IMG/VR virus record: IMGVR_UViG_2651869755_000015 | Location: 1-42,292 of that record | DNA from: a virus | Lineage: Duplodnaviria > Heunggongvirae > Uroviricota > Caudoviricetes | Reading direction: 5' to 3' (one strand) | DNA: 42,292 bases | In this document: piece by piece, positions 5,417-42,292 of the stretch | Layout of the letters: every line of letters begins with the position of its first letter | Numbering within the stretch: position 1 is the first letter of the stretch | The notes under the pieces: model-generated | What the model was told of the DNA's origin: nothing | Databases searched by the model: none | What the model saw: the letters and a program-made list of their open reading frames with translations, nothing else | Program-made: the position numbers and the translations under genes

Positions 5417-5497
5417 AACTTGTTACCTCGGTCTGTTATCGTTGAGGTAATAATTATGCGTATCTGGTTTGATGTCAATAGATATGAGTTAAAAAAA

Positions 5498-5512
5498 TTA
5501 CCCGTTAGGTAA
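5498..5512. promoter_or_regulatory. Operator-like palindrome TTACCCGTTAGGTAA (OL-equivalent)
   Basis: Perfect TTACC-N5-GGTAA dyad between the repressor gene end and the leftward early operon. Confidence 0.55.
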
Positions 5513-5523
5513 TCAAATAGGCA

Positions 5524-5569: not shown

Positions 5570-6154
5570 TTATTGTTTGCTTTTTTCGTTCTGGTTGATG
5601 ACAAATTCAATGTAACTTTCGATCTTTGCCTTCTCTGTTTCAGGTAACAATGCGTAGCGCGAGCGGTCATAGTTGATAGTTGCAGGGTCATGCGGATGAA
5701 TCAGTAGTTCATATCCGTGACGCCCGAATGCAGATGCAACATTCTCCAGGGTGGAAATGGAAACGCTGACCTCATTGTTTAACAGGCGGCTGATTGTCAC
5801 CTGGGCGACGCCGGATGCGCGGTGAAGTTTTCCCTGAGTTGAAAGGTCGCGGCTTTCGCTCATCCAGCGTTCCAGGTTGTGAGCCGCCAGCTGACCAATG
5901 TCGCTTGGGCCGACAGGCTGAAAACCTTCCTGAGAAAGCGAGCGATCGATATCAAGCCAGTTACGGGGTTTATTGGCGGCAGCTTCAATTTTTCGCGCAA
6001 CCTGGTCGCCGATAACCTTCTTGCCAAGAGCCCAGCGGTTTACCAGATTTGCCTGAGTTCCAAGTTTTTCAGCCATCCGCGTCTGAACACCATTGAATTC
6101 ACGGTCGATCAAGTCGTTGAGATTTTGCCTGCGGACGTCCTGGATACTTTTCAT
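5570..6154 (-). CDS. Prophage repressor, tandem HTH (XRE-type), no obvious peptidase S24 domain
   Basis: 194 aa; two HTH-like segments (VQTRMAEKLGTQANLVNRW; VAQVTISRLLNNEVSVSISTLENVASAF); divergent from a Cro-like gene with three operators between them; no Ala-Gly/Ser-Lys autocleavage signature seen. Confidence 0.65.
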   Translation of the reverse strand: MKSIQDVRRQNLNDLIDREFNGVQTRMAEKLGTQANLVNRWALGKKVIGDQVARKIEAAANKPRNWLDIDRSLSQEGFQPVGPSDIGQLAAHNLERWMSESRDLSTQGKLHRASGVAQVTISRLLNNEVSVSISTLENVASAFGRHGYELLIHPHDPATINYDRSRYALLPETEKAKIESYIEFVINQNEKSKQ

Positions 6155-6209
6155 TTTCTGGAAAATCGCCTCATATCTGAATCAGAAGATGATTCAATTT
6201 AAAGCAATA

Positions 6210-6272
6210 TTACCCAACAGGTAAATGCACCTCATGGGTAACTATCCTTGATTTTTGTTACCTTATAGGTGA
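6210..6272. promoter_or_regulatory. Divergent immunity promoter region with three operator-like dyads (OR-equivalent)
   Basis: TTACCCAACAGGTAA (6210-6224), partial CACCTCATGGGTAA (about 6229-6242), TTACCTTATAGGTGA (6258-6272) between the repressor and cro-like start codons. Confidence 0.6.
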
Positions 6273-15060: not shown

Positions 15061-15084
15061 GGCGAACCGGGCTGTACTGGTTTA
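15061..15084 (-). terminator. Rho-independent terminator downstream of tRNA
   Basis: Minus strand GCCCGGTTCGCCGGGC followed by ATTTTTTT. Confidence 0.5.
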
Positions 15085-15202: not shown

Positions 15203-15279
15203 TGGCGTGGCATGCAGGATTCGAACCTGCGACCAACCGCTTAGAAGGCGGTTGCTCTGTCCAACTGAGCTAATGCCAC
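15203..15279 (-). tRNA. tRNA-Arg (anticodon UCU)
   Basis: Minus-strand 77-nt sequence GTGGCATTAGCTCAGTTGGACAGAGCAACCGCCTTCTAAGCGGTTGGTCGCAGGTTCGAATCCTGCATGCCACGCCA folds as a cloverleaf (7-bp acceptor stem, GTTCGAATC T-loop, anticodon loop CTTCTAA, 3' CCA). Confidence 0.85.
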
Positions 15280-15601
15280 AACGCTGAGAGCACTTAGCCT
15301 GTTAAGGCGCCACACTTTGTCGCGGCTCCATAAATGCTCTCATCGTTGTACCCTCGTCTCTTCCGAGGCGTCACACCGAATCGCCGGGATGGTGAATCCC
15401 CGTGCGCGGAATAAAACCGCTCGACTTGCACATTCCGGCTACCTGGTTCGTTTGCCCGAGCAAGGGAGGGTGCCCCTTAAACGTATCCAGACCGCTATCG
15501 TCGCATGTGCCATACGCCGTACTGCTCAAAATAAAAGCTCACTCCACCTGTTCAATTTAACGACAAGCCAGTCAGGTTAGTAACCGGAATGAACTCTTTA
15601 G

Positions 15602-32123: not shown

Positions 32124-32627
32124 TTATACTATTGAGTTAAATGATATCTTGTCCTTAATATCATTAAGTTTGCCATATATCTTTTTTGCATAAAAATCAG
32201 CTTCCTCAATAAACTTCGACTTCTCATTATCAGGCATATTTTTGAAGGTATGTGCACATGTATATTGAGAGTAGTAATTGTGAAACTTGTTATACATATT
32301 ATTGAGTTCTTGTAAGTCTTTTTTATACTCAGGAAGGTATATGTTTATTAGCATTTCCATCGTTTGCAACGGATTGACTTTTGATGTGTCAAATTTACTA
32401 TCAGAGTGGTAACTGGCATTGTTAACAAAATTGAGAATAGCCATTTTGTTTGAAGCTATGACTTTTTCAGTAAGTATGCAATTTGTGAATAATTGCTCAC
32501 GTTTATCTCTTAATATTTTTTCGCGCTCTAATTTTATGCTGTTTTTGTATCCTTGCCTTGCACTTATGTAAGTAGAAACTATAGCAATAACTGCACCTAT
32601 CAATGCGCCTAAGATAGTATTATCCAT
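32124..32627 (-). CDS. AT-rich membrane-anchored protein (1 predicted TM), accessory
   Basis: ATG at 32627 after AGGTGG; N-terminal hydrophobic helix ILGALIGAVIAIVSTYI; Lys/Asn/Tyr-rich soluble domain. Confidence 0.5.
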   Translation of the reverse strand: MDNTILGALIGAVIAIVSTYISARQGYKNSIKLEREKILRDKREQLFTNCILTEKVIASNKMAILNFVNNASYHSDSKFDTSKVNPLQTMEMLINIYLPEYKKDLQELNNMYNKFHNYYSQYTCAHTFKNMPDNEKSKFIEEADFYAKKIYGKLNDIKDKISFNSIV

Positions 32628-32652
32628 ATAAGCCACCTAAACTGCGTAAAAA

Positions 32653-33516
32653 TTATTTCCTGCCACTTCTGTAGTATATGTTGCGACCATTTTTGGTCAC
32701 ATTAACAACATGACCCTTTGTTTCTACTTTGTTATTGGTTGCCTTATATACTTCAAAGTCAAACCATGATATATGACTTATTTCGTCTATAGATACCATA
32801 ATTTCTAGACCTTGAACTTTCTTTTTGCTTATCCCTTTTATCGCAGCACTGCGCTTAATTTGGATTTCACCTGGGTAAGCGTTTGTAAATGTAACAGATA
32901 AATTTTCTTTGTTTCTGTACCCTGACATTAAAGGAACAAAAGATATGTGTTGGTGTGGCCCTTGATTTTCCGTTGGCTCACCAGAACCATTTATTATTCC
33001 AACGTATACTTTATTTGATGATAAAGTAATTAACATTGGTTTCTTAGGATCTGATTCGATTGCATCAAGCAATAGCAAATCTAAAGAACCCTGGGAGTAC
33101 GTTTTTCGCAATACTCTAGCTTTCATTGCCTCTGATATTTTGTCATAAATATCACGTTTATAAAAACAACCTAAAAGAAGATCTTTTAGCCAAACAAAAG
33201 ATACATAACACAAAGAGAAGCAAATTGATGTGACTGACAGAAGAAGTAGCCACATGTAAATTCTATCTGTTTCTGGTTTTGACGTTACATTAAAAGTTTC
33301 CACCATGTCGTGAACTAGGTGAAAATCAGGATATTTACATTTTATAAATGCGGCAATTATTACTGAAGCAACAAGGCAATATGTACCTAATGCAGCTACT
33401 TTCATATAAAGAAGCTGGCCTTCATGTCGGTATAAACGGAAATAATGATACTGGTTAGCGGTTATCATAATATAACCACTAACCAGAATGGGGATAATTA
33501 GAAGAGCTAACAACAC
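32653..33516 (-). CDS. AT-rich multi-pass membrane protein, accessory
   Basis: 287 aa; about 3 hydrophobic helices in the first ~110 residues then a soluble domain; GTG start overlapping the upstream stop (TAGTG). Confidence 0.55.
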   Translation of the reverse strand: MLLALLIIPILVSGYIMITANQYHYFRLYRHEGQLLYMKVAALGTYCLVASVIIAAFIKCKYPDFHLVHDMVETFNVTSKPETDRIYMWLLLLSVTSICFSLCYVSFVWLKDLLLGCFYKRDIYDKISEAMKARVLRKTYSQGSLDLLLLDAIESDPKKPMLITLSSNKVYVGIINGSGEPTENQGPHQHISFVPLMSGYRNKENLSVTFTNAYPGEIQIKRSAAIKGISKKKVQGLEIMVSIDEISHISWFDFEVYKATNNKVETKGHVVNVTKNGRNIYYRSGRK

Positions 33517-33725
33517 TATTTCCTTACAGTGGCAAGATCCTGTTTAACAATTGCAGCAGCGAGACGACGCATCTCTTTAACCTCAGGAAGCTCAGAAATT
33601 TGCTGTGATGAGATATATACTCCACCACGCTTGTTAACCTGCGCTGACGCCGGAACTTCTGCATTTTTTGCCTGAGGGCTGGGTGCATTATCCCTCGTTT
33701 TTGTACGAGCGAACCAAAATCCCAT
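33516..33725 (-). CDS. Hypothetical small protein (69 aa), first gene of the accessory operon
   Basis: Normal-GC ORF translationally coupled to the membrane protein; operator dyad upstream. Confidence 0.4.
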   Translation of the reverse strand: MGFWFARTKTRDNAPSPQAKNAEVPASAQVNKRGGVYISSQQISELPEVKEMRRLAAAIVKQDLATVRK

Positions 33726-33751
33726 ATCTCCTCCTCATGTAAACACATGGT

Positions 33752-33766
33752 TTACCTTTAGGGTAA
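33752..33766. promoter_or_regulatory. Operator-like dyad TTACCTTTAGGGTAA
   Basis: Perfect dyad in the 113-bp spacer upstream of the accessory operon; preceded by ACACATGGTT. Confidence 0.55.
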
Positions 33767-33838
33767 TAGTACGCTATTCACTCCCAGTCTGCAATCTGTA
33801 CAGAATTATTTAAAGGCACATCCCTGTGCCGCCGCCCG

Positions 33839-34573
33839 TCAGAAGAACCCTGCCTTGTCGTTGATGTACTCCGCGTGGGTCTGGATATCACGCAGGCATT
33901 TGCTCACACCGACGATGTAGCAGAACATGGTGGTCAGCTCCGCCGCCGCGCCCGATACGTCGTGCCCGTCTTCCTGTAACTGGTTCAGCAGATTCATCAG
34001 CAGTGAGTTCTCCGTCAGGCCGAGAACACCAGACGGCGAATGAATCAGGCTGCGGTAGCCGGGCTTCAGTGGGGCACTGTATTCTTTTTTGTCTTCCAGC
34101 TTGATCGCCTCCATAATGGCGGGCATGAATTTTTCAATTACCTGAGTGGCCTTTGATAAATCAGCTCCACCTGAGAGACGAACATCTCCACTGACATTTG
34201 CGGGTTTTCTGTCGAAGTAGCAATCTTCCAGTTTTTCGAAGACCTCCCACGCTTTTTCAGTCTCAAGAATTTTCGCATGTCGTGCTGCACCGCGAGCGGT
34301 CCATAAGAAAAGATGACTTACTTTTGGTGCAATATTAAGCAAACCTCTTTGAGAGGACTCGTTCTTAAATGCTCGTAATTCTTCGCCTATCAGCTTGAAA
34401 CAATGTTTTCCCTCAATGAATCGATCTGCATTTCGTTGATAGTTTTGACGAATCAGTTTGGGTTCTGTGTCATACAAATCAGCAAGCATTTCTGTAGTCA
34501 TTACAGGGATGTTGCAATGAGTTGTTATCGGCAACTTATCAATAGCTATATTACGCATTTTCATTGCCTCCAT
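33839..34573 (-). CDS. Antirepressor-like protein (ORF6N/Ant N-terminal domain plus C-terminal domain)
   Basis: N-terminal VMTTEMLADLYDTEPKLIRQNYQRNADRFIEGKHCFKL matches the ORF6N/Ant pattern; C-terminal ~70 aa homologous to the 35372-35629 product. Start may be 34558 or 34564. Confidence 0.65.
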   Translation of the reverse strand: MEAMKMRNIAIDKLPITTHCNIPVMTTEMLADLYDTEPKLIRQNYQRNADRFIEGKHCFKLIGEELRAFKNESSQRGLLNIAPKVSHLFLWTARGAARHAKILETEKAWEVFEKLEDCYFDRKPANVSGDVRLSGGADLSKATQVIEKFMPAIMEAIKLEDKKEYSAPLKPGYRSLIHSPSGVLGLTENSLLMNLLNQLQEDGHDVSGAAAELTTMFCYIVGVSKCLRDIQTHAEYINDKAGFF

Positions 34574-35057
34574 CTTTCACGACGAAATAGCAATTATCTT
34601 TATAATCTAACTGGATGAACTTTATGTTTTCAGGGAGTTTTACAGAAAGAGTTTTTGCACAAGCAAAACCAAAATCTGCGCCAGAAGCATCCATATACCT
34701 TAATAATTGTTTTAATGCTGAAGGAGAAAAAGTATCTACCTTCACCTCAACAGGGTAACCATCTTTTGTTTTTAGGTCTGGTTGACCTGGTCCACCAAGT
34801 ATTTCAGCGTTAAGGTATTTTGCTATTTCTGGATAAGCGTTGTATTCAGAGCGTAGTTTTGCCTTGTTATCGACTGCTAGTTGCATAAGATGATCAAACA
34901 AATTGGTATCTAAATCTGCCCCTTCATCCCACATTCTATTTCTACAGCTAATCAATTCACTGACCAGTGGTGCACTTTCTTGCCTTAGCATAAGAAGGAG
35001 TGGAGAATTAGAAATTAACCAATACAGATCGTCGTTTGAGATTTTTTGGCCTGGCAT
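34551..35057 (-). CDS. Hypothetical protein (168 aa) co-transcribed with antirepressor
   Basis: ORF with stop overlapping the ant start region. Confidence 0.45.
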   Translation of the reverse strand: MPGQKISNDDLYWLISNSPLLLMLRQESAPLVSELISCRNRMWDEGADLDTNLFDHLMQLAVDNKAKLRSEYNAYPEIAKYLNAEILGGPGQPDLKTKDGYPVEVKVDTFSPSALKQLLRYMDASGADFGFACAKTLSVKLPENIKFIQLDYKDNCYFVVKDGGNENA

Positions 35058-35211
35058 AGCGATACCTCTACTAGTAAGTTACCCACCACCGCAACGCCAA
35101 TTGCTGGTGGTGAACTGGACAAGGTTGGCGTACCGGCCTAGTAGGTACCGGCGCACCTTTCGGTGCCCCTGCCCAGCCCACCATAATTCGGATATGACTG
35201 TGCTATACGCA

Positions 35212-35235
35212 TAAAAAAACCACGTCTGGCGTGGT
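35212..35235 (-). terminator. Rho-independent terminator downstream of small antirepressor gene
   Basis: Minus strand ACCACGCCAGACGTGGT followed by TTTTTTT. Confidence 0.55.
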
Positions 35236-35325
35236 ATGCGCCTACTAGTAATCCGGGACGCCAATCCCGGCACTGGATTTTGCCAGTGCCTGATTACTAT
35301 GGCACAAGAGGAGTGCGATGTAAAT

Positions 35326-35340
35326 TTACCGCAAAGGTAA
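35326..35340. promoter_or_regulatory. Operator-like dyad TTACCGCAAAGGTAA
   Basis: Perfect dyad in the structured noncoding spacer 35058-35371. Confidence 0.5.
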
Positions 35341-35371
35341 ATATAAGCACTCCACTTGGTAATTGCAAACC

Positions 35372-35629
35372 TTATCTGGTTTGCTTTCGTAATTGTTCGG
35401 CACAATAGTCGAGATGTGTTTGCAGATCCTGCATAGACATCTGTGAGCTGGTGACGTAGTTAATCAGTGCAGTCAGTTCGGCAAGTGGGCCATCGACATT
35501 AAATCCATCCTTATCGAGATCCCGGAGTAATTTCATCAAGTGCGATCCCTCCACCAGTGACCTGACGCCTCCCGGCGTGTGAATCCTTTCGGTAAATCCG
35601 TCTTCCAGTGGATAGTGATACTGCTGCAT
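35372..35629 (-). CDS. Small antirepressor-like protein (homolog of Ant C-terminal domain)
   Basis: ATG at 35629 after GGAGAAG (track uses TTG at 35647); IHTPGGVRSLVEGSHLMKLLRDLDKDGFNVDGPLAELTALINYV aligns with IHSPSGVLGLTENSLLMNLLNQLQEDGHDVSGAAAELTTMFCYI of the 244-aa Ant; LexA box 22 bp upstream. Confidence 0.5.
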   Translation of the reverse strand: MQQYHYPLEDGFTERIHTPGGVRSLVEGSHLMKLLRDLDKDGFNVDGPLAELTALINYVTSSQMSMQDLQTHLDYCAEQLRKQTR

Positions 35630-35650
35630 CTTATCTTCTCCATGCAATAA

Positions 35651-35666
35651 CTGTATATTTATACAG
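35651..35666. promoter_or_regulatory. LexA (SOS) box CTGTATATTTATACAG
   Basis: AACTGTATATTTATACAGTA matches the E. coli LexA consensus TACTGTATATATATACAGTA at 18 of 20 positions, with perfect CTGT-N8-ACAG. Confidence 0.7.
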
Positions 35667-35705
35667 TATCAAATAATTTGTTTGCTATCCAGCACGTTTC
35701 GCAAA

Positions 35706-35720
35706 TTACCTGAAAGGTAA
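35706..35720. promoter_or_regulatory. Operator-like dyad TTACCTGAAAGGTAA upstream of tailspike
   Basis: Identical to 15602-15616; followed by CCATATGTGGTTTTTCAGGTAAT. Confidence 0.55.
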
Positions 35721-35824
35721 TATCTGTTCGTATTCACACCATTTCTATCCATATGTGGTTTTTCAGGTAATAGAATAACCAGATATGCGGCGCAACGGGT
35801 GCTGCGACTATCTGGAGATTTAAC

Positions 35825-38800
35825 ATGACGGTCTCAACCGAAGTTGACCACAACGAATACACAGGTAACGGCGTTACGACATCATTTCCGTATACCTTTA
35901 GGGTTTTCAAGGAATCTGATCTGGCAGTACAGGTGGTTGACCTTGACGAAAATATCGCTGTGCTGGCTCTTGATACTGATTACACTGTCACTGGGGCTGG
36001 TGGATATAATGGCGGTAATGTAATTCTGTCGAAGGCGTTAGCTAACGGTTATCAGATTTCTATATCACGAGAGCTACCAGTTACGCAGGAAACTGATCTG
36101 CGAAATCAGGGAAAGTTTTTCGCTGAGGTGCATGAAGACGCGTTAGATAAGCTGACGATGCTGATACAGCAAGTCCGCGGTTGGTTTAGCCTGGCGCTGC
36201 GCAAGCCATCATTTGTGGCAAACTATTACGATGCTTTGAATAATTACATCCGCAATTTGCGCGATCCTTCCAAGCCTCAAGATGCAGCTACAAAGAATTA
36301 TGTTGATAATATTGTTAATGTGAATATTAACAGGACATTACGGGTTCCAGATAATTTTATTGAACCACTTCCTCCAGTTCATTTACTGGAAGAAACTGTC
36401 ATTGGTATCGTCAATGGTAAACCTATAGGTGTACCTGTGCCTTCTGGCAGTGCCGCAGATGTTCTTCTGCAATTATCTAGCGCAGGAGAAGGAAAAGGTG
36501 ATGCATTAATTGGTGTAAGGCAGCCATTTGCCGGGGCTGTAACTATAACTCAGCATGAAAACAATGCTCTTTTCTTAAATGTAAAACAATTCGGAGCAAT
36601 TGGGGATGGGAAATATCATCCATTATCTGAGAGGTTTTCTTCAATTTCTGAAGCAAAATCCTTATATCCTTTTGTTGACTCATTATCTCAGTCAATAGAC
36701 TGGGCCGCGTGGCAAGCTGCCATTAACACAGGAAAGGTTATTTATGGTACTGATAATGCGTATGTAATAACGGATACGTTAACACCTGTTTCTGGTGGTG
36801 GGATAATTGGTCTTGGTGTGGGCAAATGGGTCTCCGGATATACTGCAACATTTGCTCCTGATATTACCACAGGGACCACATTCCTGATGTACGGTGTAGG
36901 AAATAAAAAATATACTGTAGATTGTGTTTCTAATATGGATGTTAGTGGTGGTGTGGTTTCTAATCCATCTTCCGAAGACCCGTATACAACAACGGCACCT
37001 GCGTCATCATATGATTTATTGGATTTTACTAACGGTGATGCTAATGGGGCTACAAGAGCCACGCTTAAACCATTCTCTGCCGCAATATTGATGCCAGAGA
37101 CAGGGTGTGTTCGCCTTGAGAACTTTCGTATTGTTCCATATTTCAATGGGCTGGATGGTTATAAAGACATTGCAAATACCGGTCTTGGCGATGAGTGGGA
37201 TGTAGGTATTTGGTCACGTGCGTCTTTTGGCAATGAATACCGCAATTTGCAGGTGGTTGGATACTGGCGCAAGACGGCACTTTTAAAAACGAACATTCCT
37301 GTATCTGGCACGCTGGCCGCTCAGGGCGAGGATGAAAACTATTATCACTGTAGATTCCAGGGATTCAAGGGTGTTTCGATCCGCGCCCATGATGTATTCC
37401 GAATTACAGCGGTAACGTCCAGCACTATCGAAATCCCATGGTCAGCAAGCCACACCTTCGAAACGTCCGGGGTTTTAAGATCGGGAGGCAGGAATTTCAC
37501 TTATTCAGGATTATCCGTATCCGGTGATAAGTTAGTATTTACTGGAGTGTCTAACGCTTCTGAGGCAACAGTAGGTTCTACTATACGGCGAAATGACATA
37601 GATAACTTTGGTATGGCGGGAACGCAATTTTTCGATTGCTACATTACCAGCCTGTATCACCACACACATCTGCTTGCCACATCGCAATACCTGTCTCAGC
37701 CATTCAGCCGGCCATCAGAGTGTATGGAGGTTTCAGGGGAACCAGTTCGCGGTGTACAGGTACATGCAGGAACCATTCAGGGATGGGATGATGTTCTTAT
37801 TCATCTACATGACTGTGGAAATATGAACTTTTACAGTACATATTTCGAAAGCCAGCCAGCATATGTAACTATAAATGGTGGTAATGCTATTGGTTATGGA
37901 GCACGTATGATAGCTTCCCGGCAATCAACAAGCTCATTACCATATGCAGCAGGGAATACTCGAGTGCTTAGAATGGTCGGGTGCTCTGAAGGCAATGGCG
38001 TTGACTGGGGTCCTGTATTTAACAACTATACAGGAGGAAGATATAATTCTGGAGACGGTGTATTTAACCCCCGCGATGCATTTATAGACCATAAATCTCT
38101 TCCTGAGCAGTCAGGAGGTGAGTCAAGACTCGTATCACAAAAAGGAAATGCCAGAGTAGTATGTGGTGTTGGTAAAACTGTACTGCTTGGACCAACGTCA
38201 GGAGATTGTAATTTACAGAGCAATACTGGAAGTTTAAATATTAGAAGTGGGATAAGAGTAAGAATCGGTCACGCTGATGGAACAGACTGGTGGTTGGCAG
38301 ATGCTAATAAAATAGCTCCTGTTGATGATAATGTTAAAGCTATTGGACAGCCATCAAACAGATGCTCTGTTATCTATGCAGGAACCGGGTCAATCAATAC
38401 GTCAGATGAAACTCTTAAAACAAGATATGATATTCTTAATGCAGAGCGTAATGCCGCTATTGAAATAAAGTCAGTCATCTATAAATTTAAATTTAATGAC
38501 TCAATTAATCACAAAGGAATTGAGTCGTCCAGGTATCATTTTGGCGTTGGCGCTCAAACCGTAGGGGATATTCTTAGAAAGCATGGTTTAAACCCGGAGC
38601 AATATGCTTTTTGGTGTTACGATGAATGGCCTGACGTATGGGATGAAGAGGTGATAACTGAAGAGAGCACAGATCCTGATACAGGTGAGAAAATTTATTC
38701 TCAATATAAAACAGGAGATATGATTCTTGTAAAAAAAGCAGGAGGACGCTACGGAATTCGTTATGACGAATTAGCCATGTTTATATTAATGTCAATGTAA
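35825..38800 (+). CDS. Tailspike/tail fibre with T7 gp17-like N-terminal adaptor and C-terminal intramolecular chaperone-like domain
   Basis: 991 aa; N-terminus TGNGVTTSFPYTFRVF...DTDYTV parallels the recalled T7 gp17 N-domain; Gly/Thr/Ser-rich central region; C-terminal ~150 aa resemble auto-cleaving chaperone (S74-like) domains. Confidence 0.75.
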   Translation: MTVSTEVDHNEYTGNGVTTSFPYTFRVFKESDLAVQVVDLDENIAVLALDTDYTVTGAGGYNGGNVILSKALANGYQISISRELPVTQETDLRNQGKFFAEVHEDALDKLTMLIQQVRGWFSLALRKPSFVANYYDALNNYIRNLRDPSKPQDAATKNYVDNIVNVNINRTLRVPDNFIEPLPPVHLLEETVIGIVNGKPIGVPVPSGSAADVLLQLSSAGEGKGDALIGVRQPFAGAVTITQHENNALFLNVKQFGAIGDGKYHPLSERFSSISEAKSLYPFVDSLSQSIDWAAWQAAINTGKVIYGTDNAYVITDTLTPVSGGGIIGLGVGKWVSGYTATFAPDITTGTTFLMYGVGNKKYTVDCVSNMDVSGGVVSNPSSEDPYTTTAPASSYDLLDFTNGDANGATRATLKPFSAAILMPETGCVRLENFRIVPYFNGLDGYKDIANTGLGDEWDVGIWSRASFGNEYRNLQVVGYWRKTALLKTNIPVSGTLAAQGEDENYYHCRFQGFKGVSIRAHDVFRITAVTSSTIEIPWSASHTFETSGVLRSGGRNFTYSGLSVSGDKLVFTGVSNASEATVGSTIRRNDIDNFGMAGTQFFDCYITSLYHHTHLLATSQYLSQPFSRPSECMEVSGEPVRGVQVHAGTIQGWDDVLIHLHDCGNMNFYSTYFESQPAYVTINGGNAIGYGARMIASRQSTSSLPYAAGNTRVLRMVGCSEGNGVDWGPVFNNYTGGRYNSGDGVFNPRDAFIDHKSLPEQSGGESRLVSQKGNARVVCGVGKTVLLGPTSGDCNLQSNTGSLNIRSGIRVRIGHADGTDWWLADANKIAPVDDNVKAIGQPSNRCSVIYAGTGSINTSDETLKTRYDILNAERNAAIEIKSVIYKFKFNDSINHKGIESSRYHFGVGAQTVGDILRKHGLNPEQYAFWCYDEWPDVWDEEVITEESTDPDTGEKIYSQYKTGDMILVKKAGGRYGIRYDELAMFILMSM

Positions 38801-41004: not shown

Positions 41005-41153
41005 CATGGCATTTTTCATGGTACTGATTTCCGGTGACGGTATATAAAACGGTACTAGAAAAATGAAGTTTTGGAAAAATGTTATCACTCAATTAGTTAT
41101 GATTGTCGTAAATAATTGAGTGGGAATGATTTGACCCTGCACTATGAATGAAC

Positions 41154-41221: not shown

Positions 41222-41761
41222 TTAATTAAACCAGCTGTCCGATTTGTTCTCTTCTGCTTTGCCCACGCTTTTCATCAGATCGCGACCGCCTTCAGTCATA
41301 TTTCTGTTGGCGTCAGCTTCAGATTGCACCACATCGGTTTGCGCAGCTTTGTGCTTCAGTTCCTGATCGATAAATTCGTTTTCTCGCTTAACGCGGGCTT
41401 CTTCTTTCGCCAGCGCCAGTTTTTGTTTCTGAATCTCTAAGCTGCGTAGCTCATCTTCATAACTTTGATCGCGTTTTTTGTCCGCAGAGGCTTCGGCGTC
41501 CAGTTTATCCTGACGAGCTTTCTTATTTGCCGCTGCCGTTGCCGCTCTTTTGTTAGCGGCGGCCTGGGCATTTGCGCGACGTTGCTTCTCTTGCTGGATT
41601 TCCCTGTTGCGCTCCGCGACCCATTCGTCATGCTGCCTTTGCTCTTCATTTTTACCTTGCTGTTCCGCTTCTGCGACAGCAGAGAGTTGATCCTGCAATG
41701 ATGAGGCGATAGCCGGATAGCTTAAGGAGGCTAAGATGGCGCAAAGAAAAACTTTCTTCAT
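41222..41761 (-). CDS. Secreted coiled-coil protein (signal peptide), cargo or host-flank gene
   Basis: MKKVFLCAILASLSYPAIASS signal-peptide-like, then highly charged Ala/Lys/Glu/Gln-rich helix-forming sequence. Confidence 0.5.
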   Translation of the reverse strand: MKKVFLCAILASLSYPAIASSLQDQLSAVAEAEQQGKNEEQRQHDEWVAERNREIQQEKQRRANAQAAANKRAATAAANKKARQDKLDAEASADKKRDQSYEDELRSLEIQKQKLALAKEEARVKRENEFIDQELKHKAAQTDVVQSEADANRNMTEGGRDLMKSVGKAEENKSDSWFN

Positions 41762-41776
41762 GACTCCTCCTGATTA

Positions 41777-42292
41777 TTAGCTCTTTTCAGGACATTTGGT
41801 ATTTGGCTGAATACGCGTTTCGTTATACGTCGTGGTAATAACAACGGCTAAACCTGTCGTAAACTGGCACTCTTTACCCACCTGGGTAGAGGTATACACT
41901 TTGGTGCCTTCCTTATAGGTTAAAGAAACACCTTCCACTAAGGTTTTATCATTCACCATAGAACCCGCTGCCGCGCCTACAGCTCCGCCGCCAACTGCAC
42001 CTGCCGTCGTTCCGGAATTGCTGCCAGACCCGACGTTGTGGCCGATAACACCGCCAGCGACTGCGCCAATAAGCGCGCCGAAGGCTTGTGCGTTCCGTTT
42101 ATTTTGGGAGTTGTCTACGGCAACTTTTGCGGGAAGAATGGAAATAATATTAACGGTTTTAGTTTCTTGTTTGGTATTCAGTTGATCGGTTTGATAAACA
42201 TCGGCAGCATGATCGTCAGCATTTGACTGGCATCCTGCCAGAGTGAATGACGCTAACATTGCCACAGGCAGAAGACATTTTTTAAATTTCAT
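41777..42292 (-). CDS. Lipoprotein with glycine-zipper motif, cargo or host-flank gene
   Basis: Lipobox FTLAGC; GALIGAVAGGVIGHNVG...GAVGGGAVGAAAG glycine zipper; start codon at the last base of the window. Confidence 0.55.
   Translation of the reverse strand: MKFKKCLLPVAMLASFTLAGCQSNADDHAADVYQTDQLNTKQETKTVNIISILPAKVAVDNSQNKRNAQAFGALIGAVAGGVIGHNVGSGSNSGTTAGAVGGGAVGAAAGSMVNDKTLVEGVSLTYKEGTKVYTSTQVGKECQFTTGLAVVITTTYNETRIQPNTKCPEKS

Follow-up and report, generated by a model that had tools for sequence, protein, structure and literature searches.

A probable LexA-controlled antirepressor gene of the SPC32H type, followed by an IsrK/C4-type antirepressor module, in a Uetakevirus prophage of Escherichia coli

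By which route DNA damage could induce a prophage whose repressor carries no autocleavage domain is the question raised by a small gene, ant, that lies beside the tailspike gene of the phage described here. The window, meaning the whole stretch of viral DNA analysed (42,292 nucleotides, 42.3 kb), opens with an integrase-sized ORF, and the att core ATTGAGTGGGAATGATT, which is the sequence given for phiV10, epsilon15 and ZX5 (PMC9782041), was found at 41115-41131; the two together identify the element as an integrated prophage. About 1 kb of host DNA is present at the right end of the window. The region around ant matches epsilon15/phiV10-type temperate podoviruses, among them phiV10, TL-2011b, phiv142-3 and vB_EcoP_ZX5, and it was matched in 533 of 5,426 complete E. 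coli genomes. The phage is a Uetakevirus (epsilon15/phiV10/SPC32H-like) prophage and its host is E. coli.

The repressor gene was identified by comparison with PDB, the rep gene of phage SPC32H and Pfam.

5570..6154, minus strand: rep, a 194-aa prophage repressor with two HTH domains and without an S24 autocleavage domain

Rep matches chain A of PDB 5D50, named 'Repressor', over residues 1-190 (E 3.5e-42) and also PDB 5D4Z, the Rep C-terminal domain. Its identity to the SPC32H rep product is 42.7% overall, being 53% in the N-terminal and 39% in the C-terminal domain. The Pfam search with the product of 5570-6154 gave HTH_3 / HTH families only and no Peptidase_S24, and no AG or CG dipeptide, that is no Ala-Gly or Cys-Gly cleavage site, occurs in the Rep sequence. 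On these two grounds a lambda-type, RecA-cleavable repressor with an S24 peptidase was rejected, and the view of the initial annotation that this repressor has neither the domain nor a cleavage motif is borne out.

The initial annotation placed a near-consensus LexA box in front of the small gene.

35649-35668, no strand assigned: LexA (SOS) box AACTGTATATTTATACAGTA, matching the consensus at 18 of 20 positions
35663..35691, minus strand: putative ant promoter, assigned by conservation, with -35 TGGATA (35691..35686), a 17-nt spacer and -10 TACTGT (35668..35663)
35372..35629, minus strand: ant, encoding an 85-aa antirepressor, orthologue of SPC32H Ant (88% identity, PDB 5D50_E, phrog_450)

The box differs from the E. 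coli LexA consensus TACTGTATATATATACAGTA at two positions and is the sole site with three or fewer mismatches to the LexA 20-mer in the whole window. Not one of 100 dinucleotide-preserving shuffles of the window yielded any match at that threshold, and the box is thus confirmed as near-consensus (18/20) and unique. The bare core CTGT-N8-ACAG occurs also at 15072 and 19614, in both cases with G+C-rich spacers and no match to the 20-mer. The box had been placed 22 bp upstream of the small gene; the upstream position holds, and the distance to the ant ATG was found to be 19 nt, a trivial difference. From the box to the ATG of the divergent tailspike gene (35825) it is 157 nt.

The promoter was assigned to 35691..35663 by inference from conserved hexamers and from the annotated layout of the LexA-repressed promoter p95 of phage 186, whose SOS box TACTGTATGTTTATACAGTA is nearly identical and whose annotated -10, TACTGT, is made up of the first six bases of that box. 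In the window the predicted -10 TACTGT likewise lies inside the LexA box as its first half-site, and 17 nt upstream of it stands a conserved -35-like element, CTGGATAG. Both CTGGA.A and TACTGT are kept in an alignment of the ant-tailspike intergenic region (alignment A1: the window, phiV10, SPC32H, epsilon15, Tyrion, BUCT554 and three Klebsiella phages). Judged by these hexamers, the LexA box probably overlaps the -10 of the ant promoter. A generic sigma-70 consensus scan made no call of this promoter, and the predicted -10 is weak. The alternative TTGATA-17-TATTGC was rejected, being unconserved in SPC32H or epsilon15.

Besides the members of alignment A1, five prophages were inspected, from Citrobacter (two), Erwinia dacicola, Pseudocitrobacter and Scandinavium. 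All 15 related loci have a LexA box, always equally far from the ant ATG; their hosts are Escherichia, Salmonella, Enterobacter, Klebsiella, Citrobacter, Erwinia, Pseudocitrobacter and Scandinavium. The core is CTGT-N8-ACAG in 12 of the 15 and the slightly degenerate ATGT-N8-ACAG in three Klebsiella phages, and the 8-nt spacer and the flanks diverge among the loci. The gene order common to the relatives is a virion gene, in some cases intervening modules, ant and then the divergent tailspike gene; the position of ant at the end of the virion operon and divergent from the tailspike gene is also that of the SPC32H-type system. The setting, an AT-rich intergenic region with a divergent tailspike gene at 35825, would allow the palindrome to be a fortuitous inverted repeat or a regulator of the tailspike gene. 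That reading is hardly credible, given that none of the 100 shuffles matched, that 12 of 15 loci keep the CTGT/ACAG cores, with ATGT in the other three, despite a variable spacer, and that the palindrome lies 19 nt from the ant ATG as against 157 nt from the tailspike ATG and overlaps the conserved -10-like hexamer.

The gene itself starts with ATG at 35629 and stops at 35372-35374, preceded by GGAG at 35641..35638 on the minus strand. In a tblastn search of 50,697 phage records Ant was found in 35, all of them epsilon15-like phages, and it is 88% identical to the product of SPC32H_020, 'ant: anti-repressor protein' (KC911856). Its single PDB match is chain E of 5D50, 'Anti-repressor protein' (E 4e-47, residues 2-84). 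It also matches phrog_450 (9e-48), a family annotated 'unknown function', and has no NCBIfam match and no Pfam match other than a sub-threshold, spurious one to DUF724. The proposal that the 85-aa protein is homologous to the C-terminal domain of the ORF6N antirepressor encoded at 33839-34573 was upheld, Ant being 42% identical to residues 163-236 of that protein over 74 aa (E 4e-16).

PDB 5D50 is the co-crystal of the SPC32H 'Anti-repressor protein' and 'Repressor', and the SPC32H GenBank record names the two genes ant and rep. Since Ant corresponds to 5D50_E and Rep to 5D50_A, the two proteins of the window are orthologues of the co-crystallised pair. The SPC32H Ant-Rep system was reportedly described by Kim & Ryu in 2013 (J Virol 87:11775) and by Kim et al. 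in 2016 (PNAS 113:E2480). According to one review, SOS and LexA self-cleavage lead in several Salmonella prophages including SPC32H to an antirepressor, which blocks the lytic repressor through direct protein contact (PMC7380047), and another names SPC32H among the phages whose lytic cycle is set off by way of host LexA (PMC9437464); both cite Kim & Ryu 2013 for LexA-dependent induction of the SPC32H antirepressor. The SPC32H Ant tetramer is described as binding two Rep dimers and breaking the Rep tetramer (PMC9638917).

The window and SPC32H share the orthologous Ant (88%), a full-length Rep homologue (43%), the genus Uetakevirus and the position of ant adjacent to the tailspike gene. They also share the LexA box, TACTGTATGTTTATACAGTG in SPC32H, at an equal distance from the ant ATG, and an ATTACC-N5-GGTAAT palindrome upstream. 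They differ in the host, which is E. coli here, in the divergence of the window Rep, especially in its C-terminal domain (39%), and in the isrK/C4/second-antirepressor module, which follows ant in the window and is not found in SPC32H. The locus is the published SPC32H Ant/Rep antirepression system in an E. coli relative; it is therefore already known and unsurprising to a specialist.

The shared palindrome recurs in the window, where ATTACC-N5-GGTAAT was found at 17 sites with two or fewer mismatches against 1.3 expected. The following copies from the palindrome scan are relevant here, all without an assigned strand.

35705..35721: perfect ATTACC-N5-GGTAAT in the gap from the ant promoter to the tailspike gene, a putative Rep operator
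6209..6225: operator-like palindrome between rep and the cro-like gene
5497-5513 and 5435-5451: operator-like palindromes downstream of rep
35325-35341: operator-like palindrome TTTACCGCAAAGGTAAA, with 2 mismatches, abutting the -35 of a putative promoter, PisrK
33751-33767: further ATTACC-N5-GGTAAT copy

The good copies are intergenic, being placed downstream of rep, in the rep/cro-like gap and at operon heads. The copy at 35705-35721 is located just upstream of the ant -35 and is invariant in alignment A1, with a half-site repeat of the palindrome at 35761-35771. Equivalent sites in the epsilon15 RefSeq record carry the predicted annotation 'protein_bind: repressor, lysogeny', from which we infer that the ATTACC-N5-GGTAAT palindromes are probably Rep operators.

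An SOS switch, in which ant is controlled by LexA and Ant removes the non-cleavable Rep so that the lytic operons fire, is very probably how this prophage is induced. In the lysogen, host LexA on the 35649-35668 box would keep ant silent, because the box overlaps the -10 and the start region of the putative promoter, and the non-cleavable two-HTH Rep would hold the lytic operons off through its candidate ATTACC-N5-GGTAAT operators. Upon DNA damage, RecA-stimulated self-cleavage of LexA would allow transcription of ant, and the 85-aa Ant would bind Rep and dissociate it from the operators, by which the lytic genes would be derepressed. As in SPC32H, an Ant tetramer would take two Rep dimers, break the DNA-binding Rep tetramer and free the operator. 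What the window itself contributes to this mechanism is the box with its uniqueness and conservation, the orthology of Ant and Rep, and a Rep that has no autocleavage domain. LexA dependence and the mode of Ant-Rep binding are taken from the SPC32H literature, and the promoter hexamers and the operator role of the palindromes are read from sequence. In support of it, E. coli phage ZX5 has an Ant identical to that of the window and a Rep that is 99.5% identical, and it was induced 100-fold by mitomycin C (PMC9782041).

Ant is conserved at 88% between the E. coli and Salmonella phages but Rep at only 43%, so conservation of the Ant-Rep contacts in the window prophage is an assumption made by analogy with SPC32H. 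The same disparity would suit an Ant whose main target is something other than the resident Rep, either the repressors of other prophages (cross-talk) or the SOS machinery, as for the DinI-like part of Tum in phage 186, and Gifsy antirepressors do act in trans on other prophages (PMC3121763; PMC7380047). Such a target is nevertheless very improbable, as the SPC32H Ant-Rep complex was crystallised (5D50), Ant shows no similarity to Tum or DinI, and the phage records with a homologue of Ant are the same ones that have a homologue of Rep.

Derepression of an antirepressor by LexA, in place of repressor cleavage, had been proposed by the initial annotation with 186 Tum and the Gifsy prophages as comparators. 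The proposal itself is supported, the sequence elements being present and conserved and the proteins orthologous to those of SPC32H; the two comparators turned out to be functional analogues only. In phage 186 the logic is the same, in that cleavage of LexA leads to an antirepressor, Tum, which inactivates the non-cleavable CI. Ant and Tum have no significant similarity (BLASTP 16.5 bits, E 0.06), for which reason Ant as a relative of Tum was rejected and the relation is one of logic, not of ancestry; nor was phage 186 matched in the tblastn search of 50,697 phage records with Ant. Tum differs further in being a 146-aa protein with a DinI-like part, encoded by a P2-like myovirus and directed at another repressor. 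SOS-controlled antirepressors whose targets are uncleaved repressors are likewise found in Gifsy-1, Gifsy-3 and Fels (Lemire et al. 2011, PMC3121763). As the tblastn search with Ant matched epsilon15-like phages only, any relation of Ant to the Gifsy/Fels antirepressors is one of analogy.

In the immI region of P22, the antirepressor locus adjoins the tailspike gene of a temperate podovirus with bipartite immunity. That region (mnt-arc-ant with the sar RNA; sar and ant are described in PMC12197685) differs from the present locus in that P22 ant is under Mnt, Arc and sar and not under LexA.

Directly behind ant, the minus strand of the window carries a second set of elements.

35296..35341, minus strand: putative PisrK, TTTACA-17-CATAGT with TGn (35324..35296), together with the abutting palindrome TTTACCGCAAAGGTAAA (promoter scan)
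35213..35289, minus strand: IsrK-like sRNA with a1 (35264..35258) and b1 (35248..35241) (Rfam RF01394)
35103..35188, minus strand: C4 antisense RNA with b' loop 35145..35138 and a' 35131..35125 (Rfam RF01695)
35065..35100, minus strand: C4 target with a2 (35100..35094) and b2 (35074..35068); the target extends over the Shine-Dalgarno sequence (35069..35065) of the 168-aa ORF
34551..35057, minus strand: 168-aa ORF in the icd/orf45 position (phrog_18738, unknown function, 6e-119)
33839..34573, minus strand: second antirepressor, with an ORF6N N-terminal domain and an Ant-like C-terminal domain (residues 163-236, 33866-34087) (Pfam, PHROG)

The Rfam model RF01394 (isrK) aligned from end to end at 68.1 bits (gathering score, 50), and the fold of this RNA has a z-score of -4.9. 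The PisrK-like site stops 7 nt short of the first position of the isrK model, with which the predicted start at about 35289 coincides, and it is conserved in five phages (alignment A2). RF03163 (c4-a1b1) was matched at 35302..35250 with 43.6 bits, just below its gathering score of 46.7. The C4 model RF01695 likewise aligned from end to end (model positions 1-87), at 76.7 bits (gathering score, 45). The small gene had been credited with its own terminator at 35212-35235. A terminator does exist there, a 6-bp G+C-rich hairpin followed by T7 on the minus strand (35235..35219); however, it is the 3' hairpin of the IsrK-like sRNA (RF01394) and, because a promoter-like site lies upstream of the isrK match, not simply the terminator of ant.

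In IsrK, CUAGUAGG (b1) and UUGGCGU (a1) are exact complements of the C4 loop CCUACUAG and of the C4 segment ACGCCAA, and so are CUAGUAG (b2) and UUGGCGU (a2) in the leader of the 168-aa ORF; the complements are 7-8 nt long. The duplex of C4 and leader is predicted at -48.3 kcal/mol, a value reached by 1 of 500 shuffles. The b' loop varies among phages, being CCUUUUAG in phiV10, CCUUUGUAG in Tyrion and Kp4865 and CCGUUUAG in ST11phi3.2, and a' is AGACCAA in Tyrion and GUCUCAA in Kp4865. Covariation of the C4 loops with their targets across phages gives compensatory evidence for the C4-target interaction.

No Pfam, NCBIfam or PADLOC match was obtained for the 168-aa ORF, the end of which overlaps the gene for the ORF6N-Ant fusion by 23 nt, and PADLOC gave nothing for the four ORFs downstream of ant. 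In the fusion protein the N-terminal half matches Pfam ORF6N (1e-18); the protein matches phrog_1760, 'anti-repressor', at 1e-97 and, over residues 161-242, phrog_450 at 5e-36, with no match in NCBIfam. As the window holds no second LexA box, LexA control of the ORF6N gene was rejected. By their sequences and order, isrK, C4, the 168-aa ORF and the ORF6N-Ant fusion are identified as a P1 immI-like second antirepressor module located directly behind ant.

The counterparts of this module are the immI region of P1/P7 (c4-icd-ant; its c4 is summarised in PMC12197685) and the isrK-orf45-anrP region of Gifsy-1, which have in common with it the C4/isrK RNAs, the a1/b1-a2/b2 complementarity and an antirepressor gene that overlaps an upstream ORF. 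As in the Gifsy-1 locus, the IsrK of the window has a putative promoter of its own and a terminator and is followed by the antirepressor operon; in Gifsy-1 the short IsrK activates translation of a read-through mRNA and thereby the antirepressor AnrP (PMC4825925). The upstream ORF is longer in the window, 168 aa compared with 73 aa for P1 icd and 45 aa for Gifsy-1 orf45. The window differs from both also in that its antirepressor is an ORF6N-Ant fusion and in that the module stands directly behind a LexA-controlled ant. In 8 of the 15 related loci ant is followed by an isrK/C4 pair; the module is absent within the flanks examined of SPC32H, epsilon15, BUCT554, BUCT711 and two prophages.

With a complete isrK-C4-ORF-antirepressor module directly downstream of ant, and with the C-terminal domain of the fusion homologous to Ant, the small Ant might do no more than trigger or assist induction, which would be brought about by the IsrK/C4-controlled fusion as in P1 immI and Gifsy-1 isrK-anrP. 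IsrK and AnrP do drive induction of Gifsy-1 (PMC4825925), and overexpression of the large Bro-N anti-repressor of ZX5 cut lysogeny about 1000-fold (PMC9782041). This is all the same unlikely, since SPC32H, epsilon15, BUCT554, BUCT711 and the two prophages, which lack the module in the flanks examined, keep ant and the LexA box, so that the small Ant suffices there, and since the large gene has no LexA box.

The two modules may all the same be coupled. The terminator scan found none between ant and isrK except that of IsrK itself, and LexA-derepressed ant transcripts should therefore carry the IsrK a1/b1 elements at their 3' end; judged from this arrangement, they should either stop at the IsrK terminator or read through it. 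PisrK, for its part, appears to be under Rep control, because a palindrome resembling the Rep operator abuts this putative promoter. That the two antirepressor modules are wired in series, as a feed-forward arrangement, is possible though doubtful. In such a series SOS would let the small Ant remove Rep, by which PisrK would open, and would also supply IsrK-type RNA; this RNA would titrate C4 or remodel the leader, so that the 168-aa ORF and the ORF6N-Ant fusion would be translated.

The main value of these results lies in annotation and in the prediction of prophage behaviour. Almost all E. coli phage records label the product of the small ant gene a 'hypothetical protein', its family phrog_450 is annotated 'unknown function' and neither Pfam nor NCBIfam has a model for it, despite the co-crystal structure of its orthologue. 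The vB_EcoP_ZX5 study covers only the large Bro-N anti-repressor and makes no mention of LexA (PMC9782041). Once ant is recognised, the inducibility of such prophages by mitomycin C or quinolones would be explained despite their non-cleavable repressor. The only mildly novel point is the possible coupling of the LexA-controlled ant with the IsrK/C4 module. If serial wiring were true, it would act by feed-forward to lock the prophage irreversibly into induction, and about half of the Uetakevirus-like prophages examined would possess a second layer of immunity whose specificity is coded by C4. The tandem of ant and an IsrK/C4-controlled second antirepressor would thus amount to layered control of induction, in which SOS sensing at the protein level is combined with antisense-RNA immunity.

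Directly downstream of ant, the gene of the LexA-box-controlled 85-aa antirepressor Ant, the minus strand holds two full-length Rfam matches:

35289..35213, minus strand, IsrK sRNA, directly downstream of ant
35188..35103, minus strand, C4 antisense RNA, downstream of ant

The C4 loops are complementary to target sites a1/b1 and a2/b2, and targets and loops show covariation across related phages. The stretch 35103-35289 (minus strand) is the control region of the second antirepressor, an ORF6N-Ant fusion, and resembles the control regions of both P1 immI and Gifsy-1 isrK. The position of icd in P1 and orf45 in Gifsy-1 is held here by another gene:

within 33839-35057, minus strand, 168-aa ORF, phrog_18738, a PHROG of unknown function

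This ORF shares a 23-nt overlap with the ORF6N-Ant fusion gene and had no match in Pfam, NCBIfam or PADLOC; by eye alone, its ...PVEVKVD... stretch is reminiscent of PD-(D/E)xK nucleases. In phiV10 a Bro-N anti-repressor gene comes directly after the C4 RNA, so the leader ORF and the N-terminal domain can be exchanged, with the Ant-like C-terminal domain retained. Downstream of the antirepressor module the GC content is 32-35% against approximately 55% in the adjoining virion genes, and the block has the look of a moron or of cargo genes:

32124-33725, minus strand, three ORFs (69, 287 and 170 aa), each in a PHROG of unknown function

None of the three ORFs had a PADLOC match. The 287-aa ORF as annotated has a hairpin with a 15-bp stem (33486..33451) within its 5′ end, and its real start may therefore be further downstream.

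The palindrome ATTACC-N5-GGTAAT is strongly over-represented in the window, with 17 sites against 1.3 expected, and its sites are mainly intergenic and at the heads of operons:

5435, 5497, 6209, 6594, 8540, 8602, 12470, 12488, 15601, 33751, 35325 and 35705, ATTACC-N5-GGTAAT 17-mers

The same motif is labelled as repressor binding sites in the epsilon15 record. Taken together, the excess, the placement and the epsilon15 annotation suggest that the prophage repressor Rep may silence the lytic operons individually, with the tailspike gene and the putative isrK promoter among its targets. A tRNA-Arg gene (anticodon TCT; 15203-15279, minus strand) is found inside the prophage, near the operator-like palindrome at 15601.

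The right prophage boundary is marked by the att core ATTGAGTGGGAATGATT at 41115-41131, which is the attP reported for phiV10, epsilon15 and the E. coli phage ZX5 (PMC9782041), at the guaA 3′ end. The ORFs past this core (41222-42292) are presumably host genes, and the left att site lies outside the window because the window begins at the integrase ORF.

The region 33800-35830 was matched in 533 of 5,426 complete E. coli genomes. The Ant family has no model in Pfam or NCBIfam, is listed in PHROGs as phrog_450 of 'unknown function', and is labelled 'hypothetical protein' in the majority of records for E. coli, Klebsiella and Enterobacter phages, despite a solved structure with its repressor (5D50). 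In three Klebsiella phage loci (L006, L007 and L008) the box upstream of ant reads ATGT-N8-ACAG in place of CTGT-N8-ACAG and the -35 element is CTGGAAAA in place of CTGGATAG; LexA control may be weaker or otherwise tuned in these relatives. Comparing E. coli with Salmonella phages gives an identity of 88% for Ant (35372-35629) but only 43% for Rep (5570-6154), the latter being 53% in the N-terminal domain, 30% in the linker and 39% in the C-terminal domain. Either a small conserved patch of Rep is the Ant-contact surface, or divergent Reps are tolerated by Ant, in which case cross-induction among heteroimmune prophages would be possible.
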